Source: an uncultured Lachnospiraceae bacterium (lineage in GTDB: Bacteria; Bacillota; Clostridia; Lachnospirales; Lachnospiraceae). Taken from it: 64,000 nt of DNA. The notes under the pieces were generated by a model. It was not told the origin of the DNA. It was given only the letters and a program-made list of their open reading frames with translations, and ran no database searches. Positions within the stretch are counted from its first letter, which is position 1; the number at the start of each line of letters is the position of its first letter. Made by a program: the position numbers and the translations under genes. Below, piece by piece: positions 1,867 through 9,812 of the stretch. The stretch is from assembly GCA_934376955.1 (NCBI GenBank), contig CAKRPJ010000001.1, positions 21,396 to 85,395 on the forward strand. The letters run 5' to 3'.

Positions 1867-2439
1867 ATGAATTTCTTTACTGCTGACCTTCATTTTTCTC
1901 ACCGTAACATTATCCGCTTCGATGACCGTCCGTTTCAAGACCTGCCCTCTATGCACGCGGAGCTTATCAAGCGCTGGAACAGCGTTGTCTCTCCTGGCGA
2001 TAACGTTTATGTCCTTGGCGATATGTTCTGGGACCCGTCCGAAGCTCCTATGATCCTTGAGCAGCTCAATGGCCATATCCATCTCATCAAGGGCAACCAC
2101 GATAAAATCTCGCCGGAAATGATGCGCTACTTTTCTTCCATCAAGGGCTATGATGAACTCGCAGCCGGCAAATATAAACTTATTCTCTGCCACTACCCTA
2201 TCATGTTCTACAACCACTCCTATTCGCCGGATTGCTACATGCTCTGCGGCCACGTCCATAACACCCGTGAGAATACTTATCTCGCTAAGTGGAAAGCAGA
2301 ACTGCGCGATAACGCGGTCGGTATTGCCAGTAACAAGGGCAACATCATCAACGTTGGCTGTATGCTGCATGATTATACCCCCAAAACCCTTAACCAGCTC
2401 ATTGCCTGGGATAAGGAAGGAGGCTGGAAAGTTGAGTAA
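1867..2439 (+). CDS. calcineurin-like metallophosphoesterase
   Basis: MNFFTADLHFSH...GDMFW...GNHD motif set typical of metallophosphatases. RBS GAGGTGA. True start is an internal ATG of the 266-aa ORF. Confidence 0.8.
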   Translation: MNFFTADLHFSHRNIIRFDDRPFQDLPSMHAELIKRWNSVVSPGDNVYVLGDMFWDPSEAPMILEQLNGHIHLIKGNHDKISPEMMRYFSSIKGYDELAAGKYKLILCHYPIMFYNHSYSPDCYMLCGHVHNTRENTYLAKWKAELRDNAVGIASNKGNIINVGCMLHDYTPKTLNQLIAWDKEGGWKVE

Positions 2440-2671
2440 AACAATTTTTACCTTTACGGAAGAGTTCGATGATGCCGGCCATCTCGTCAAGCGCACCATC
2501 ACAACCGAACAGGGCGAAACAGTTCTGCCGGTAACGCCAAACACCAAGCCGATTGATAACATGCCGTTTATCCCCACTCCAACCCCACGGAAAACGCCGC
2601 TTGATATAATCTGGAAAGCGCCGCCTGATGTAACCTGTAATTCTACCGGAGGTATCGCCCATGAATCCTAA
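2432..2671 (+). CDS. hypothetical protein (TTG start)
   Basis: RBS GGAAGGAGG 8 nt upstream of a TTG. Overlaps the phosphoesterase stop. Confidence 0.35.
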   Translation: MSKTIFTFTEEFDDAGHLVKRTITTEQGETVLPVTPNTKPIDNMPFIPTPTPRKTPLDIIWKAPPDVTCNSTGGIAHES

Positions 2672-2927
2672 AGAATTTGAACTGGCTGCCTGCACTGCCA
2701 TTTCCCGCTACTTCAATGATAACGCCGATGTAACTGGTGTCTATCTGTCACCGGATGATATCTACACCGTCTGGTCGTGCAAAACTCTTCAAAACAATAA
2801 AGGTCTTTTCACCACCCCTGTCAAAGACGGCCTGTATTACGAAGCCACCTATAACGGCGATAAGCAGGAACTCTACGTTGACTGTTATCAAAAGCTTAAA
2901 AACTTTGCAGTAAAAGTCAGCGAATAA
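2661..2927 (+). CDS. hypothetical protein (88 aa)
   Basis: RBS GGAGG before the ATG. Coding-like composition. Confidence 0.5.
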   Translation: MNPKEFELAACTAISRYFNDNADVTGVYLSPDDIYTVWSCKTLQNNKGLFTTPVKDGLYYEATYNGDKQELYVDCYQKLKNFAVKVSE

Positions 2928-2976
2928 AACAACATAGCCCCTATCCACTGTCACCCAGCGGACGGGGGCTATCTTT

Positions 2977-3432
2977 TTAGTTCAGGCCAAAATCAGCTAA
3001 CAACGGGTTCTTCAACAGCATCCCCACAATCACATACCGGTAAGATTTCACACTGCCGTCATAATAAAGGGTTCCTCGTATCCTCTGCTTTTTCACCAGT
3101 CCGGCCATGAACTCTGCCTGCTCTTTTGTAAAGTACAAAGAAACCTGCGGGTAGTTCTTGTCATCCAGCCGCGTTGTAATGTGCCGGTTGATTTCCAGTT
3201 CTGTCGGCAGCACATAGCTTTCTTCCAGGTGCGGCATCAAAGCCCGGTATTCTTTGGTATCTTTCATCACGCAGCGGTCGGCACCCACCGCCATCATCCT
3301 GCCAAGCTCTTCCTGCAACAGCCGGTTTGCCACGGTTCCAATGCGGGTATCTTCAACCTCGGCCTCGTCGTTCAGCACCTCGCGTACACGCATACTCAGC
3401 CGCAGGTTGATTTTCACTTCCTTTGCCATCAC
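2977..3432 (-). CDS. ribbon-helix-helix (CopG/ParG-like) DNA-binding protein with C-terminal extension, translationally coupled to parB
   Basis: N-terminus KINLRLSMRVREVLNDEA is RHH-like. Its ATG overlaps the parB stop (ATGA). Confidence 0.6.
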   Translation of the reverse strand: MMAKEVKINLRLSMRVREVLNDEAEVEDTRIGTVANRLLQEELGRMMAVGADRCVMKDTKEYRALMPHLEESYVLPTELEINRHITTRLDDKNYPQVSLYFTKEQAEFMAGLVKKQRIRGTLYYDGSVKSYRYVIVGMLLKNPLLADFGLN

Positions 3433-4619
3433 TTAACCGTCTCCAGCAGCTCTTTCAACTTCGCAGCTTTTTCAATCAGCTCTGTCAGCGTCTTAATGTC
3501 TTCTGTCCGCTGCTCCTGGCTCATCTTTTTCAGTCCTCTCTTATATGCCGGCGTTGCAATCTTCTTGCCAATCTTACCGGCCAGCGGCTGTAAAGTTTTC
3601 TGAACAAATGTTTTGGTTTCGGCTTTCTTCTCAGCAGTTTCAATCTCGCGTTCAAGTGCAGCCTGTTTTTCGGTTTCAGCAGGCTTTTCGGCCGCCATCT
3701 TTGTTTCAAGTGCGGCCACGCTTGTTTCAAAACTTTGTAATACCCGCTCCAGCCTCTCCTCGCGTTCTTCTGTCGAGTCTCCGTTCCAGGCATCGTCCAA
3801 TCCCTGCTGGGTATCATTGCGGATTCTGTCTCGGTCTTCTTCGTTCACACAGTTAATCGCAAACAATCTATTGTACAAACTCAAAAGTTCCTGTTGCTGT
3901 TTCTCTTCAAATTTGATCAATCTGTCGCATTCTGAGCGTTTCAGCTTTTTGTCATCCAGCAGTTTCAGCAGTCCTTTATTCAGCTCGTTTTCCAGGCGCA
4001 AATCTCTATCAATCATTTTCCCACTTGCGGCACTGATTTCTTTCAAGGCTTTCTTGGCCTCGGTCTGGTTCATGTTATATGGTTCTTCTTGTAAACACTC
4101 AATAAATTCAGCTGATGCCTTGCGCCGGATCATTTCATCCCCAAAACCACCGCGCACCTGCAGGTTAGCGCTGTACAAAATAACTTTCTTTTCATTGTGG
4201 GATAGGGGAGTGGTAACTACATTACAGTTCTTGGCCGCATTCCATGTCGCGTCCTGTTCCTGCAGCAGCATCAATGCTCGGTATCTCCGCTCGCCAGAAA
4301 GCAAAACATACACCGTCTTACCATCTTCCTGCTCAGGGAACACAACCAGGTTGTGCAGCAGGCCATTGCGCTTAATGTCTTCGGCTAATATTTCAATATC
4401 TTCTCCGTTGTCATTCTGACGGAAAATCTCGTTGTCCGGGTTCAGTCGGATGTCTGCCAGGCTGATATCCTTATTTTCAAACTCAATGGTCTTATTGCCA
4501 ACAATCTTTCCAACCAGGGCACGGCCGGCATCGTTATCGTTCACTTCTTTTGCTGCACTGCTGGTAGGAATGTTCAGTTTCTTTTCATTGCCTTTCTTCG
4601 GCTTTGATTTCAAACCCAT
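3429..4619 (-). CDS. parB: ParB-like partition protein (ParB/Srx N-terminal domain)
   Basis: GERRYRA motif in ...VLLSGERRYRALML. Likely start is the internal ATG at 4619, with RBS AAGGAGGA inside the parA 3' end; the ORF-table start is 4649. Confidence 0.85.
   Translation of the reverse strand: MGLKSKPKKGNEKKLNIPTSSAAKEVNDNDAGRALVGKIVGNKTIEFENKDISLADIRLNPDNEIFRQNDNGEDIEILAEDIKRNGLLHNLVVFPEQEDGKTVYVLLSGERRYRALMLLQEQDATWNAAKNCNVVTTPLSHNEKKVILYSANLQVRGGFGDEMIRRKASAEFIECLQEEPYNMNQTEAKKALKEISAASGKMIDRDLRLENELNKGLLKLLDDKKLKRSECDRLIKFEEKQQQELLSLYNRLFAINCVNEEDRDRIRNDTQQGLDDAWNGDSTEEREERLERVLQSFETSVAALETKMAAEKPAETEKQAALEREIETAEKKAETKTFVQKTLQPLAGKIGKKIATPAYKRGLKKMSQEQRTEDIKTLTELIEKAAKLKELLETVK
3876..3900. 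repeat. 25-bp repeat CAAACTCAAAAGTTCCTGTTGCTGT, copy 1, inside the parB coding sequence (putative parS/centromere site)
   Basis: Exact 25-mer shared with two copies upstream of parA. Contains an imperfect palindrome AACTcaaaAGTT. Confidence 0.6.
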
Positions 4620-4620
4620 C

Positions 4621-5475
4621 TCACTTTTCCTCCTTGTCCAGTTTTTCAAGCCGCTGTTTCAGCTCTTTATAAGCTGCCACATAGCTCTTGCCAATCGGTT
4701 GTGTTTTGGCAGAATAACATACCGGCACACATCTTCTCACCGATGTCTTCACGGCCAAAGCGCTGGGTATCTCAGTCTTGAACAGGGTAGGGCCAAGCAC
4801 TCTCTGACATTCTTCCCGCGTCTCTCTCGTGGCCGCACCCTTGTCCACCATGGTCAAAATCACGCCGATTCCTTTCAGGTTCGTCTTTGGGTTCTTGCGC
4901 AGCTCATTGCAAATGGAATAAGTTCTAAATGCTGAATCCTCAGAAAACGAATCGCACATCATCGGGATCAATACATAATCCGCTGCCACCAATGCGTTTG
5001 AAAGGATCATACTGTCACGGGTCGGCTGGGTATCTACAATGATATAATCATAGTTCTCCCGCACTTGGTCCAAAAAGTATAGCAAAAAGTCGGCTGTAGA
5101 TTCCAACCGTCTTGGGTCGCCCACATCATACTGCTGCGCATCAGCCAACAGGTCCGGCAGCCTCTTGTTGATCCGCGGTGTCTGGCTGCTTGCCGGGATC
5201 ATATCAACATTCTCATACTCTGTCCCCACAATATACTCTTTCGTGGAGGTGTACTTGAACCCGTCAAACATATCGTACAGCGCATTGCGGGAATAAGCAT
5301 TGCTTGTAATCGTATTGCCGCCGCTCAATGCAAAGGTCAAGTTGCCCTGCGGGTCGGTATCTACGCACAAAACCTTTTTTCCTTCATCCCCCATTAGGTA
5401 AGCAAGGTTAGAAGCCGTAACCGTCTTACCAGAGCCGCCTTTTTCAATCGCAATCGTAATAATTTTTGCTGCCAT
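4621..5475 (-). CDS. parA: ParA/Soj-family partition ATPase
   Basis: Deviant Walker A IAIEKGGSGKT. Size and downstream motifs fit ParA. Confidence 0.9.
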   Translation of the reverse strand: MAAKIITIAIEKGGSGKTVTASNLAYLMGDEGKKVLCVDTDPQGNLTFALSGGNTITSNAYSRNALYDMFDGFKYTSTKEYIVGTEYENVDMIPASSQTPRINKRLPDLLADAQQYDVGDPRRLESTADFLLYFLDQVRENYDYIIVDTQPTRDSMILSNALVAADYVLIPMMCDSFSEDSAFRTYSICNELRKNPKTNLKGIGVILTMVDKGAATRETREECQRVLGPTLFKTEIPSALAVKTSVRRCVPVCYSAKTQPIGKSYVAAYKELKQRLEKLDKEEK

Positions 5476-5492
5476 AGCTAACCCTCACTTGT

Positions 5493-5517
5493 CAAACTCA
5501 AAAGTTCCTGTTGCTGT
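5493..5517. repeat. 25-bp parS-like repeat, copy 2 (between rep and parA)
   Basis: Exact copy of the 25-mer. Confidence 0.6.
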
Positions 5518-5570
5518 TTAATTTGATTATATCACACTTCGTAGTAATGTCAACGGGGTAGAGCATCTGT

Positions 5571-5595
5571 CAAACTCAAAAGTTCCTGTTGCTGT
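5571..5595. repeat. 25-bp parS-like repeat, copy 3 (between rep and parA)
   Basis: Exact copy of the 25-mer, 78 bp from copy 2. Confidence 0.6.
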
Positions 5596-5642
5596 AACAA
5601 AGTTAAAAATAGGGGAGCCACCTCGTCAGCAGCTCCCCCTGG

Positions 5643-7196
5643 TTATTCTTCAAATGTTGTTTCATCCAGCTGAAACATCGGCTCTTTGCCGTCCTGTCCC
5701 ATCCGCCGTTTCCCGCCTTCAATGATCGTGGCGGAATTTTCTACAATGTCGCTGTACACCACCGTGCGGTAATACTGCGCAGATTTCTTTTCCACATCCT
5801 GCCTCAGCATCACGCTAAACTTCTCCAGTTCACCCAACGCCCAGCTTTTCAGCCCGTGGTTGTTCTGGATGATTCCGTTCAGCGCTTCCAGTGTTTCTTC
5901 AGCCTGGTCTTGTTTGTTCTGGTTGGTCAATATCTTGGCTGCATAAGTAAACACATTTGCCAAAACATTCCGCTCTTCTACGGTCAGCTCCTTCTTGTAG
6001 CCCGCATAGCCAGCCCGGTCTTCTATCTCGCTCCGCGCCTTGCGGAACGTCATTCCCATCACAGCCGGGGGCAGGGGAGAGACCTCTCCGGTTTCAGCCG
6101 CCAACACAGCTTGTTTCTTCGCCTTTTGTTTGCGTGCCACCTCCTGATCGCTGCGCTGGTTCGCGCTCAAAAACGCCCGTACCTTCTCCATCTCTTTGCG
6201 TGATTTGTACTTGATAAAGATATACAGATGAGTGTATTTCCGCACGCCCTTGGTTCGCACCGGCTCATAGTCAAACCACAGGTCTGTCATCTCATTGATC
6301 TCATTTTTTACCAGCTTCAAAACATTGCGTTCAAAGTCTGAAAAATTCGGGTACTTTTCTGTCAATGGTTTTTCGCGGTCATACTTGTTATCCACATCGG
6401 CTTTTTTGCGGTTCATGCCGCGCTCTTCTTTGGTCGGTACAGACAGCAGGTTTTTGAAATCATCAATGCCAAACTTTTTGTACTTGTATCCACGCAGCTG
6501 GTTCCGCTTTGCGGGGAACATCCCCAGCACCTCGTCCGTCACCGGCTCAAACACCAGTCCATTGGCGTATTCGTAGTCCCGGTTTCCATTATCATAAGAT
6601 AAAATAATTTCATACACCCGCATGGAATAGGTGCTCTGCATCATCAGCAGGTATTCAATGCTGTAAGATGTATAATTGCTTGTCAGCTGTGCAATATCTT
6701 TCCAAATGTCCTCATTGAACCGCATACTGATGGTTTTGCCCTCAGTATCAATGATCGAACCTTTGCGTACCCAGCTCATGCTCTTGTACTTGGTTGGGGC
6801 AATCGGTACCCAAAATGTCCGGTTCTCCAAATTTTCAATCGTGTGCTGCAAATATGCCACATAGGCCGGCTTTTCCGCATTCACGCCTGTCAGCTTTGAA
6901 AAGTCGCTGAACGTAATCGTGTAATACTTCGAAGCATCCGTGTCATTTTTCTGGTCGATCTTGGAAAGCAGCATGAACAAAATTTTCTGCTCGTTGCGCG
7001 GCAGGGAATACTTGGTCTTCTGGATCAGGTCATTGCTCTTGGTGATGTAAGAGCCAACGGCAAAAGGGGAGCCGGTCTTCTTTTCCTGCTCCTTTTTCGC
7101 CTTAACCTCTTCGTCCGTCATCACCTCTCCGGTAATCACCGTTCCTGTGCCTGCACGGTTTACTTTTTGGTCTTTCATTATTCTGTTCGCCCGCAT
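5643..7196 (-). CDS. rep: Rep_3-family (RepB-type, iteron-binding) replication initiator
   Basis: ...SYSIEYLLMMQSTYSMRVYEIIL... and ...FSDFERNVLKLVKNEINEMTDLWFDYEPVRTKGVRKYTHLYIFI match the Rep_3 core signature. The iteron field lies immediately upstream. Confidence 0.85.
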   Translation of the reverse strand: MRANRIMKDQKVNRAGTGTVITGEVMTDEEVKAKKEQEKKTGSPFAVGSYITKSNDLIQKTKYSLPRNEQKILFMLLSKIDQKNDTDASKYYTITFSDFSKLTGVNAEKPAYVAYLQHTIENLENRTFWVPIAPTKYKSMSWVRKGSIIDTEGKTISMRFNEDIWKDIAQLTSNYTSYSIEYLLMMQSTYSMRVYEIILSYDNGNRDYEYANGLVFEPVTDEVLGMFPAKRNQLRGYKYKKFGIDDFKNLLSVPTKEERGMNRKKADVDNKYDREKPLTEKYPNFSDFERNVLKLVKNEINEMTDLWFDYEPVRTKGVRKYTHLYIFIKYKSRKEMEKVRAFLSANQRSDQEVARKQKAKKQAVLAAETGEVSPLPPAVMGMTFRKARSEIEDRAGYAGYKKELTVEERNVLANVFTYAAKILTNQNKQDQAEETLEALNGIIQNNHGLKSWALGELEKFSVMLRQDVEKKSAQYYRTVVYSDIVENSATIIEGGKRRMGQDGKEPMFQLDETTFEE

Positions 7197-7361
7197 AGCC
7201 TGTCCGCCATGTCAAGCTCAACCTCCAAATCACAGTGTATGTATCGCATCGCACAGGTGGGTATACCTAACGCATTATATCTTTATCTTACCCTATTTTT
7301 ATCCGCTCGTCAAGCCTAATTTTTTTGCGCTTTTCTTCAAAACAAAACTCGTAGTAAAATT

Positions 7362-7420
7362 TTTTGCGCTTATTATTATTTATTATTTATATTTTATATT
7401 TATATTATATAAGGTATATT
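7362..7420. promoter_or_regulatory. AT-rich tract next to the tandem iterons (putative DNA-unwinding element)
   Basis: TTATTATTATTTATTATTTATATTTTATATTTATATTATATAAGG, essentially all A/T. Confidence 0.4.
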
Positions 7421-7525
7421 GCGAGTTTCTTTTACACGAGCTGCGAGGTTCTTTTATTCCTCATACGAGTTTCTTTTATACTGGCTACGAGTTTCTTTTA
7501 TTCCTGCTACGAGTTTCTTTTACGC
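7421..7525. repeat. five tandem 21-22 bp direct repeats (C)TACGAGTTTCTTTTA(T/C), the reverse complement of the dispersed iteron core
   Basis: Read directly from the sequence. Period is about 21 bp, two helical turns. Confidence 0.7.
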
Positions 7526-8215
7526 AAAATCCTGCTTTTCGCTGTCAAACAACCTCGTAATTGCTGTCAAAAAATCTCGCAGTTCGCATCAAATAATCTC
7601 GTAATTCACGTTAAATTTTTTGTTTCCTGCGCTTTTTGTCAAACAAACTCGTAGTTTTAAGCCAAACGGATAGGGTAGGGGAGTGGTCCCGCCCCTGATT
7701 TTTTTTACGCCTTTTCAAATCAAAAAACTCGTAGTTCATTCCGCTGCATCAACCATCCATATCTGGCCGTCTGAACCATATTTTTTCAATCTTTTGGTCA
7801 AACAAACTCGTAATTCTGGCTATGGGTGGTCATAAATCAACTTCAAGTCCTGTCATGCGCCGCCCGTCCATACCGTCCTGGCTTTATTACAATCGGTATT
7901 TTTTGCGCTTTTTCACCGTAAAAGAAACTCGTAGTTCAGCTCTAAATGCTCTGCCCATCAATCGGCAGCAGGGGAGAGGGTCTGATTTTTTTTGCAGTTT
8001 TCGGCGTAAAACAAACTCGTAATAGCTACAGCAACCAGCGCCGGCCGAATTCAATCTTGTCGCATGTATCATCTATCAATTCATAAACCGTTCATATTGG
8101 CCGTTTTCCCGGTTTCACACCCTATAAGCCTATATACCAAAAAGTATACACCTCACATGCCGGCAATTCAACAAAAATCAATCCCGTCAACCAAATAATA
8201 ACCGCGTACACATTC

Positions 8216-8560
8216 TTGGGTATAACTTTGTGCAACCTGCCTTTGGAAATAACCAGAAAAGTCGTAAACGTAGATGGAACCGATTTGTCAAAAATTCGTT
8301 CGCGCATAAGCGGAACAGTAAATAAAAACTCTAGAACCGGGATAAACGGTGTTGCGCTTACCAAAAAAGGCACCTACAAAGCATATATTAACTTTAAGCA
8401 TAAACGCATTCACCTTGGCTTTTTCACCAATCTAAAAGACGCAGCCGCTGCCAGAAAAGAAGCCGAAGAAATTCTTTACAATAAATTTTTAGACGATAAC
8501 GCCGGTTGGGAACAGCGCCTGGCAGACGCAATGGCCGAATACAAAAAGAACAAGAAATAA
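8216..8560 (+). CDS. stand-alone AP2-domain DNA-binding protein (start uncertain, TTG in table)
   Basis: GINGVALTKKGTYKAYINFKHKRIHLGFFTNLKDAAAARKEAE resembles the AP2/integrase-type DNA-binding domain common in phage HNH nucleases. Confidence 0.55.
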   Translation: MGITLCNLPLEITRKVVNVDGTDLSKIRSRISGTVNKNSRTGINGVALTKKGTYKAYINFKHKRIHLGFFTNLKDAAAARKEAEEILYNKFLDDNAGWEQRLADAMAEYKKNKK

Positions 8561-8569
8561 CCGTCAATT

Positions 8570-8598
8570 TCGCTAAAGCTTAATTTAGCGAAATATAG
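8570..8598 (+). terminator. hairpin TTCGCTAAA-GCTTAA-TTTAGCGAA after the AP2 gene
   Basis: 9-bp perfect inverted repeat. Weak U-tract. Confidence 0.35.
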
Positions 8599-8703
8599 GG
8601 AACCCGATAAAATCTTCAAAACCTCCTTGACATATGACATAAAATGTCGTATCCTATAACCAAAGGAACGACATTAAACGTCATACAGATAGGAGGCTTT
8701 CTT

Positions 8704-9210
8704 ATGGCTTTAACTACAGAACAAGTTTTTGCAATGGGTATTCTCTATAATCAACTAACCACAGCAGTTTATGGTGACGATGGTCCAAAAGCAAACAGCT
8801 TCCAAAACGCCACCATGTATCCGTTTTTGGAAATTACCAAGCTGATTCTTCGTGCCCGTTCTGAACGTCGTATCTCTCCAGAGCTGGATCGCCTGATTGC
8901 CCAAACATATTCAACCCTTACCGAAGAAGACGTTCAGAGCGGGTTTAGCAGCATTCTTCCCGTTGAACTGCAAGGTGCCTTTGCTCTTGGTTATTATCAT
9001 GGCCAGGTCGAAAAGTATTCGGATATCAAGCCCATCGGTCTCAAAGCCATGCGTGCCCGCGCTAATATGACTGTCCAACAGGCAGCAGATAAACTCGGTA
9101 TATCCGCCCGCCAATACCAACGTATTGAATCTGGCGAAAGCAAACCTACTGTTCAGGCAGCACAAACTCTTGCCTCGCTGTTTCAATGCTCTGTCAATGA
9201 TTTATTTTAA
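8704..9210 (+). CDS. XRE-family helix-turn-helix protein (HTH at the C-terminus, novel N-terminal domain)
   Basis: C-terminus TVQQAADKLGISARQYQRIESGES is an HTH_XRE. RBS AGGAGG 9 nt before the ATG at 8704. Confidence 0.7.
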   Translation: MALTTEQVFAMGILYNQLTTAVYGDDGPKANSFQNATMYPFLEITKLILRARSERRISPELDRLIAQTYSTLTEEDVQSGFSSILPVELQGAFALGYYHGQVEKYSDIKPIGLKAMRARANMTVQQAADKLGISARQYQRIESGESKPTVQAAQTLASLFQCSVNDLF

Positions 9211-9221
9211 GAGGTAGTTTC

Positions 9222-9812
9222 ATGCTTCGTCGCTGCACTCGCTGCGGAAGTTCATTTGAAGGGCAAAAAGAACAGCGCCTATGCCCCTCATGTCGTGAAC
9301 AGGCCGCTCATAAACCACGCATGATATCTCATGTTTGTAAGTCGTGTGGTGCTACTTTTACCGGTGGTCCTCGTGCATCTTTCTGCCCAGAATGTAAGGC
9401 GGAACGTGATAAGCAGGCTGTAAAAAAATGTCGGAACCTTGCTAAAAACAAGACCACTCGCCAAATTGGATCTACCGATATCTGTCAGCGGTGTGGCAAG
9501 CCTTATATTGTAAAAGGTGGCCTTCAAAAATATTGTCCAGAATGCGCCCCGATCTCCTTAAAAGAAAAAACCGAGCCGTTAAAACGTGCCTGGGCTGCCA
9601 ATTACCGTGAACAAAACCCAGACCACAAAAAGAACATGCAGAAAAACGGAACAATTTGTGTTGTCTGCGGAAAAACTTTTGCTGCAGTAGATCGTAGTAA
9701 TGCTTGTTCTCCTGAATGTTTAGCAATTCTTAAAAAACAACAGCAATACCATAAGGACATAAAACGTGGGCGTTATAAAAAAATATCAAACACAAAAGGA
9801 GAACCATCATGA
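9222..9812 (+). CDS. protein with four tandem CxxC...CxxC zinc-ribbon units
   Basis: Four units of C-x2-C-G-x(10-13)-C-(P/S)-E-C. RBS GAGG. Confidence 0.6.
   Translation: MLRRCTRCGSSFEGQKEQRLCPSCREQAAHKPRMISHVCKSCGATFTGGPRASFCPECKAERDKQAVKKCRNLAKNKTTRQIGSTDICQRCGKPYIVKGGLQKYCPECAPISLKEKTEPLKRAWAANYREQNPDHKKNMQKNGTICVVCGKTFAAVDRSNACSPECLAILKKQQQYHKDIKRGRYKKISNTKGEPS

Follow-up and report, generated by a model that had tools for sequence, protein, structure and literature searches.

A probable plasmid-type iteron origin with outlying repeats upstream of a Rep_3 initiator gene in a gut phage-plasmid

Repeats upstream of a Rep_3 initiator gene

Positions 7197–8215 of the DNA analysed here, a 64,000-nucleotide stretch of contig CAKRPJ010000001.1 referred to below as the window, contain no credible gene. 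The interval sits between a minus-strand gene that ends at 7196 and plus-strand genes that start at 8216. The minus-strand gene, rep, encodes a Rep_3-family initiator. It is followed by its own terminator and then by parA and a ParB-like gene, an order typical of a low-copy maintenance module. The remainder of the window encodes tail and other phage structural proteins. Hence, the element is a tailed phage that carries a module for plasmid maintenance. Here, we describe the repeats that occupy 7197–8215. Together with the modelled fold of Rep, they indicate that the interval is probably a plasmid-type theta iteron origin, served by the adjacent Rep protein, of a tailed gut Oscillospirales/Clostridia phage-plasmid.

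Rep matches both Pfam families expected of such an initiator above their gathering cut-offs (Rep3_N, 3.1e-25 and 89.6 bits; Rep3_C, 2.3e-11 and 44.2 bits). The PHROG annotation is 'replication initiation protein'. Sequence matches in the PDB are to RepA of pPS10, RepE of F and the pi protein of R6K. The two winged-helix domains, WH1 and WH2, span residues ~50–335. An AlphaFold2 model, based on a 47-sequence alignment, had a mean predicted local distance difference test score (pLDDT) of 76.5. Foldseek aligned this model with monomeric RepE54–iteron complexes (target-normalised template modelling score 0.80–0.83, E 2e-10) and also with pi bound to its iteron. Sequence identity to RepE in the structural alignments was 16–18%.

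Rep is about twice the usual Rep_3 length. Residues ~370–500 form an all-helical C-terminal domain (pLDDT ~90) that has no Pfam match. This domain is family-specific and is kept in relatives down to 40% identity. Foldseek matches for Rep were dominated by WH1–WH2, and fold relatives of the C-terminal domain were not resolved from that list.

A sequence-only reading of the interval had described about nine dispersed repeats in one orientation and five tandem repeats in the other, all built on the core AAACTCGTA(G/A)T. The core is real. Allowing up to one mismatch, AAACTCGTARY matches 15 times in the window, against 2.65 ± 1.62 expected, and none of 100 shuffles reached 15. Eleven of the 15 matches lie within 7345–8023. 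We then aligned all copies on CTCG and derived a 19-nt matrix (19.6 bits). This recovered 14 sites of 17.4–28.2 bits in 7337–8023, nine on the plus strand and five on the minus strand, as first described. Elsewhere in the window there is a single further match of at least 12 bits (position 9419, 13.1 bits).

Several details required adjustment. The tandem period, first put at ~21 bp, is 22 bp; Tandem Repeats Finder (TRF) reported 4.6 copies across 7422–7522 and the matrix sites are spaced by exactly 22. Five of the nine plus-strand copies are truly dispersed, while three make up a second 22-bp tandem array and one stands alone beside the rep promoter. The AT tract does adjoin the tandem set and holds the longest A/T run of the window, but the pure run is 43 nt and not 60 bp. 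The proposed long unit of ~35 bp measures ~36 nt and is genuine for the six non-tandem plus-strand copies; its supposed start, TTTTTGCGCTT, has just three literal occurrences in the region, one of them not followed by a core. A description of the locus as bipartite is also too simple. Moving away from rep, there is a promoter-proximal site, the AT tract, five tandem iterons, three inverted tandem iterons and five dispersed sites. Coordinates are collected in Table 1.

The AT tract is the extreme of its kind in the window. Positions 7371–7420 are A or T at 48 of 50 places, and the runner-up to the 43-nt run is 19 nt long. The tract also holds the least stable 60-mer of the 64 kb (-56.7 kcal/mol; mean -83.3, sd 5.8). 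Within the pure run, TRF reads ~3 copies of a 13-nt unit (period 13, 2.9 copies). Five nucleotides separate the end of the pure run from the first tandem iteron. The consensus of the five tandem iterons, read on the minus strand, is RTAAAAGAAACTCGTAGC. Cores in the inverted array are slightly degenerate (AACCTCGTAAT, AATCTCGCAGT and AATCTCGTAAT). A 22-bp period corresponds to roughly two turns of the helix. As 22 is not divisible by three, a coding repeat is unlikely.

The six non-tandem plus-strand copies form one family, D1, with 64–75% identity when 7320–7355 is the reference copy. They share a 5' extension, 12–30 nt upstream of the core, that comprises a run of 5–8 T, a GCGC-like tetramer and TTTT. 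Tandem sites have no such extension. In the dispersed units the extension precedes the core GTCAAACAAACTCGTARTT, and a 17-nt core is common to all five. Matrix positions of these five sites are 7637, 7717, 7796, 7917 and 8005, giving spacings of 80, 79, 121 and 88 in a single orientation. The units at 7700 and 7988 have extra upstream similarity in common (GGGGAG...CTGATTTTTTTT), which suggests a history of duplication. We considered whether the dispersed units are promoters or terminators. This was dropped, since a scan of 7000–8700 showed promoters and terminators to be no commoner than in shuffled sequence and placed no terminator at a T-run of these units.

Between rep and the promoter-proximal iteron there is a candidate rep promoter. 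The iteron ends 24 nt upstream of the -35 hexamer. Because promoter-like matches were not in excess (7 in the region, 4.1 expected), the rep promoter is given as a candidate.

Table 1. Coordinates of the replicon, its repeats and neighbouring genes (window positions unless a related locus is named)
Feature	Position	Strand	Details
PIN domain and PhoH-like ATPase protein, 404 aa	32–1246		Pfam PhoH 3e-29, PIN_4 4e-5
ParB-like gene	3429–4649		beyond parA
Third par repeat copy	3873–3899		inside parB coding sequence; 24/27 match
parA	4621–5475		downstream of rep and its terminator
Perfect 28-bp direct repeat	5490–5517, 5568–5595	+	TGTCAAACTCAAAAGTTCCTGTTGCTGT
parA promoter, near-consensus	5553–5548, 5534–5526	-	TTGACA, 16 nt, TGnTATAAT
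Hairpin and T-run	5605–5640	-	AGGGGGAGC...GGCTCCCCT; directly after rep stop
rep, 517-aa Rep_3-family initiator	5643–7196	-	Pfam, PHROG and PDB sequence matches; AlphaFold2 model
Part of rep encoding residues ~370–517	5646–6086	-	
Candidate rep promoter	7285–7313	-	TTGACG, 17 nt, TAAGAT; consensus scan only, 9/12 matches
Promoter-proximal long unit	7320–7355, core 7337–7355	+	19.3 bits; 5' T7-GCGC-TTTT extension; rep side of AT tract
AT-rich tract, candidate DNA-unwinding element	7356–7417		43-nt pure A/T run 7370–7412; orphan TTTTTGCGCTT 7361–7371 before the run
Five tandem iterons	7418–7524 (7418, 7440, 7462, 7484, 7506)	-	TRF period 22, score 125; 22.0–27.0 bits
Three tandem iterons, inverted relative to the first array	7543–7605 (7543, 7565, 7587)	+	TRF period 22 at 7544–7616; 21.3–24.8 bits
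Five dispersed long units, ~36 nt	7620–7655, 7700–7735, 7779–7814, 7900–7935, 7988–8023	+	D1 family; 17.4–28.2 bits
114-aa open reading frame	8216–8560	+	matches phage 'HNH endonuclease' PHROGs over non-catalytic part only
188-aa protein	8644–9210	+	HTH_3 domain at C-terminus
Dispersed arrays of sister lineages	L037 1850–3400; L040 1980–3500; L043; L052 1250–2900		

Layout of the repeats in related lineages

Protein searches with Rep identified 42 IMG/VR loci, on human-gut viral contigs of up to ~390 kb. Among these, 33 are close relatives with 97–99% Rep identity, mostly from contigs of 85–150 kb. Rep also recovers contigs of metagenome-assembled genomes labelled Oscillospiraceae, Acutalibacteraceae and Clostridia. 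The wider family reaches ~40% identity and one member is named from Gemmiger.

Of the 33 close relatives, 31 retain the full set of 14 sites, with order, orientation and spacing unchanged. In one relative (L002), the gap from the tandem array to the promoter-proximal site is ~38 bp longer. Across 30 distinct relatives, per-column diversity was 0.036 in the cores, 0.009 in the AT tract and 0.10–0.15 in the spacers. Within the dispersed block, cores are ~3 times less variable than spacers (pi 0.031 and 0.093; Mann–Whitney p 1.6e-6) and the 5' extensions are kept slightly better than spacers (p = 0.01); these p values are rough, since alignment columns are not independent.

More distant lineages are informative. 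In L037, L040 and L043 (57–63% Rep identity) the core is AAyCTCyG instead of AAACTCGTAG. The order is nevertheless the same: rep, promoter, AT tract, five tandem 22-bp repeats, two inverted tandem repeats and then dispersed sites in one orientation. Hence, repeat sequence shifts with Rep lineage while the layout stays, although ParB diverges in parallel with Rep and the covariation alone does not single out Rep as the binding protein. Dispersed sites in these three loci share their 3' half, AyCTCnG, with the tandem sites; in the 5' half, TCGCGTTAA, itself well conserved, replaces G.AAAA.AA (CGGTAA in L043). Direction is largely uniform. All five dispersed sites agree in the window, as do 13 of 15 matches to the extension motif in L037 and 17 of 19 sites distal to the tandem module in L040. 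The number of dispersed sites ranges from 5 to ~20 between lineages and the tandem module is constant. At 40–49% Rep identity, L049, L051 and L052 carry repeat families of their own, spread over 1–2.7 kb upstream of rep.

Two further observations concern the dispersed arrays. Sister lineages have sets of 13 to ~20 same-orientation sites over 1.7–2.2 kb that contain no open reading frame (ORF) longer than 91 aa. Separately, GGGGA occurs 31 times and TCCCC once on the iteron-sense strand of dispersed-array regions in eight loci (window, L037, L040, L043, L046, L049, L051 and L052). GGGGA often precedes a dispersed site by ~45 nt, as at 7677 and 7971 in the window. This strand bias of the spacers partly reflects an excess of G over C.

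Partition genes and neighbouring genes

The partition genes have repeats of their own. Two perfect copies of ACAGCAACAGGAACTTTTGAGTTTGACA, a member of the ACAGCAACA family, flank the parA promoter and a third copy lies inside parB. L048 (80% Rep identity) keeps an equivalent arrangement of three sites with diverged sequence, and in L037 and L040 the interval from rep to parA holds 3–4 related repeats of the ACAGCAACA type. The ACAGCAACA-type repeats are candidates for parS or a par operator and, compared with the iterons, the better candidate for a centromere or operator. Since every lineage checked has distinct par repeats near the parA promoter, the iterons need not be the centromere, and the proposal that they are is weakened accordingly.

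Directly after the rep stop there is a strong hairpin followed by a T-run. Hence, rep and parAB look like separate transcription units.

To the right of the interval there are two small genes of apparently DNA-binding type. The product of the first (114 aa) may, we presume, be an AP2-like DNA-binding domain. The second encodes the HTH_3 protein. Alignment to the close relatives collapses from ~8225, which therefore marks a mosaic boundary. A protein with PIN and PhoH-like ATPase domains is encoded near the maintenance module, at the left end of the window.

Proposed roles and comparison with known replicons

An origin of the iteron type comprises a gene for a WH1–WH2 initiator, at least three direct repeats of 17–22 bp at about two helical turns, and an adjoining AT-rich element. 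All are found here, side by side. Hence, the suggestion of an iteron origin for a Rep_3 initiator gains support from the position of the repeats directly upstream of rep, from the 22-bp tandem arrays beside an extreme AT tract, and from relatives in which Rep has diverged and the repeat sequence has changed but the layout has not. In addition, five sites with the same core (7637–8023) lie outside the module of tandem arrays and AT tract, as expected for an auxiliary locus.

By analogy with the RepE/pi/RepA/TrfA paradigm, we infer that Rep monomers would use WH1 and WH2 to fill the five helically phased 22-bp iterons. The resulting array would melt the adjoining 43-nt A/T run, and host helicase and replisome would be loaded there. 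The three inverted tandem iterons, which belong to the conserved core module, probably shape or limit the Rep complex. Rep occupancy is probably linked to transcription of rep through the promoter-proximal site. The five dispersed long sites would be auxiliary Rep-binding sites outside the minimal origin. They would most likely act as a Rep sink and as a pairing partner (titration and handcuffing), so keeping the prophage-plasmid at low copy. We tentatively favour a role for the dispersed set in negative copy control, like that of P1 incA, F incC and Vibrio ori2-inc. In textbook accounts, surplus iterons act through titration and handcuffing (PMC12361487; PMC6090056). The sequence-only reading had likewise suggested that the tandem set may be the true origin and the dispersed set a copy-number control (incompatibility) locus. 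A constant tandem module beside a variable number of dispersed sites is compatible with that division and hints at it indirectly.

A number of observations weigh against this interpretation, whether of the origin or of the dispersed sites, or are not accounted for by it. Among the latter is the part of the GGGGA bias that exceeds composition. The 5' extensions are not explained by simple binding of Rep monomers. Helical phasing of the dispersed sites, assessed at five loci, was not significant (Rayleigh p ~0.1–0.2). At the rep promoter we found no pair of half-sites that could make up an inverted half-iteron operator. Similarly, the DnaA box TTATCCACA has no match with up to one mismatch in 7197–8215, and the nearest look-alike, TTATCCGCT at 7301–7309, has two mismatches. 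DnaA boxes are common in iteron origins but not universal. The iterons are separated from rep by the AT tract, unlike in origins of the pPS10, P1 and pCI305 types, where the tract is on the far side of the iterons from rep. GC skew is negative on either side of the region and does not switch there. Among the relatives, L001 is missing the promoter-proximal iteron because of a ~55-bp deletion. L048 has neither iterons nor AT tract upstream of rep and instead has a phage integrase and a reverse transcriptase at 2100–3000. This locus may represent an integrated or rearranged element whose plasmid origin is gone, or else an assembly artefact (contig coverage ~2x). Finally, the outlying repeats of plasmid pMP7017 have no effect on copy number (PMC8313286), which weakens the case for copy control by the dispersed set.

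That plasmid lends some weight to a different view, in which the origin is correctly placed and the dispersed sites have a positive or structural role. They could be a Rep-loading or stability element, a maintenance element like oriP of Epstein–Barr virus (EBV), or a polar fork barrier that makes replication unidirectional. Deletion of the outlying pMP7017 repeats B2–B4 reduced stability and not copy number (PMC8313286). The shared direction of the dispersed sites, complete in the window and mostly kept in relatives, would suit a polar function. So too, a positive role fits sites that have conserved extensions where the tandem sites have none, and that vary in number beside a constant tandem module. 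Conversely, a second segregation element is not needed when ParA and ParB are present with repeats of their own, and where iteron systems have been studied best (such as P1, F and Vibrio ori2-inc), additional iterons reduce copy number. We know of no report of fork-barrier activity by Rep_3–iteron complexes in Firmicutes, which counts against a polar barrier. A positive or structural role is less likely than copy control and, in our estimate, doubtful overall.

The extensions raise a further idea, which we regard as unlikely. Dispersed sites may be a composite class of initiator site, with a WH2-type iteron half joined to a lineage-specific 5' extension (T-run and GCGC here, TCGCGTTAA in relatives). 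The extension could be read with help from the C-terminal helical domain of Rep or from a partner protein. If so, one-orientation arrays of up to ~20 composite sites in ~2 kb of non-coding DNA would be a dedicated regulatory or maintenance element. They would be a Firmicute counterpart of the RctB 39-mers or the EBV oriP family of repeats, and not spare iterons.

It is much less probable that the repeats are read by another protein, as a partition array bound by ParB or a transcription-control array bound by the AP2-like or HTH_3 proteins of 8216–9210. The binding protein is not deducible from sequence alone, ParB diverges alongside Rep, there are two small genes of DNA-binding type immediately to the right, and the extension motif TTTTTGCGCTT appears once without a core. 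Against this, tandem 22-bp repeats that abut an extreme AT tract, with a Rep_3 gene directly downstream, are what typically marks iterons. The window and L048 have a separate repeat family at the parA promoter and inside parB, with related repeats in L037 and L040. In L049, three genes separate rep from parAB and the repeats stay with rep. The right-hand genes are not conserved, since the alignment to relatives breaks where they begin.

We can largely set aside a functionless origin for the repeats, be it decaying duplications, coding sequence (ORFs 7147–7560 or 7364–7654) or a structured RNA locus: mechanically called ORFs do overlap the region and the 7700 and 7988 units do hint at duplication, but conservation is selective for cores over spacers, the layout is kept across lineages whose repeat sequence has changed and terminator-like sites are not in excess. 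The overlapping ORFs were rejected as genes on account of the conservation pattern, the 43-nt A/T run inside them and the 22-bp period, which shifts the frame at each copy. A scan of 6500–9000 against Rfam, with E up to 1, returned no match.

The iteron origin that we favour is thus of classical, largely textbook design. What is new is the lineage, for which our searches gave no characterised close relative, together with the inverted 5+3 core module and the extended dispersed sites with their ~2-kb arrays in sister lineages. Nucleotide searches of annotated phages and plasmids returned one unannotated faecal contig and no plasmid. Apart from that contig, protein searches of plasmid and phage databases returned distant Rep_3 genes only; the best plasmid-database matches to Rep had 25–28% identity over WH1–WH2. 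Our literature search found nothing specific to this phage-plasmid family, which has no characterised replicon. The analysis locates a likely origin, initiator and partition module for abundant, uncultured 90–150 kb phage-plasmids of human-gut Oscillospirales/Clostridia. A ~2.6-kb fragment containing rep and 7197–8215 is a possible low-copy vector backbone for genetically intractable gut Firmicutes. The natural series of origins, with 5 to ~20 auxiliary sites, could also be used to probe how auxiliary iteron number sets copy number.

Among known systems, the P1 replicon is a close parallel. Briefly, it consists of oriR with five incC iterons, repA and nine incA iterons; F is similar, with oriS, RepE, incB and incC. 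P1 is likewise a phage that lives as a low-copy plasmid, with a WH1–WH2 initiator and adjacent parA and parB. In P1 and here alike, the iteron cluster of the origin comes with an AT-rich region, and further copies of the iteron lie beyond the minimal origin. Both have 14 sites in total (5+9 in P1). Hence, the locus is not, as had been suggested, unusually large. There are also differences. Control iterons of P1 are downstream of repA, whereas all sites here are upstream of rep. The origin iterons of P1 extend over the repA promoter, whereas the AT tract parts iterons from promoter in the present element. Compared with P1, the present origin has no DnaA boxes or GATC-type elements, and its dispersed sites have a 5' extension. 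Compared with P1 and F, Rep is about twice as long and has the extra C-terminal helical domain.

Theta replicons of lactococci and other Firmicutes with Rep_3 initiators, of the pCI305/pWV02 type, carry, upstream of rep, both an AT-rich stretch and direct repeats of 22 bp. The same three elements, initiator family included, are seen here. In those plasmids, ~3.5 iterons share one orientation, the rep promoter carries inverted repeats, and there is neither an inverted second array nor a dispersed set.

Plasmid pMP7017, a Bifidobacterium breve megaplasmid with a RepB initiator, has 17 repeats of 20 nt that vary in spacing and orientation, more than the 14 found here (PMC8313286). Experimental dissection showed that the tandem iterons B12–B15 and an AT-rich region are essential, a precedent for the division proposed here. 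Outlying repeats are more variable and dispensable for replication; they affect stability and not copy number (PMC8313286). Like the present element, pMP7017 is a gut-bacterial replicon with a tandem subset, a flanking AT-rich region and outlying repeats, a comparison made by layout and not by Rep sequence. Its repeats are downstream of repB on a conjugative megaplasmid, whereas ours are upstream of rep on a phage.

The origin of Vibrio cholerae chromosome 2 occupies ~900 bp. It is divided into ori2-min, with phased tandem iterons and an AT-rich DNA-unwinding element, and the regulatory ori2-inc (PMC6090056). Extra sites for the initiator RctB in ori2-inc act by titration and handcuffing, and RctB is enlarged by extra domains. 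RctB also recognises two classes of site that differ in length, one of which occurs at its own promoter (PMC6090056). The longer class, the 39-mers, shares no sequence with the 12-mers, whereas the long sites described here include the iteron core (its 3' half in the relatives). They are thus not a second class unrelated to the iterons. Unlike the Vibrio origin, the present one has no Dam/GATC control, no DnaA box was found and the host is a Firmicute. In organisation, the present origin as proposed nonetheless agrees with that of Vibrio: each has a replicative part with an adjacent auxiliary part, an enlarged initiator, sites of two lengths and a site at the promoter of the initiator gene, here a candidate promoter.

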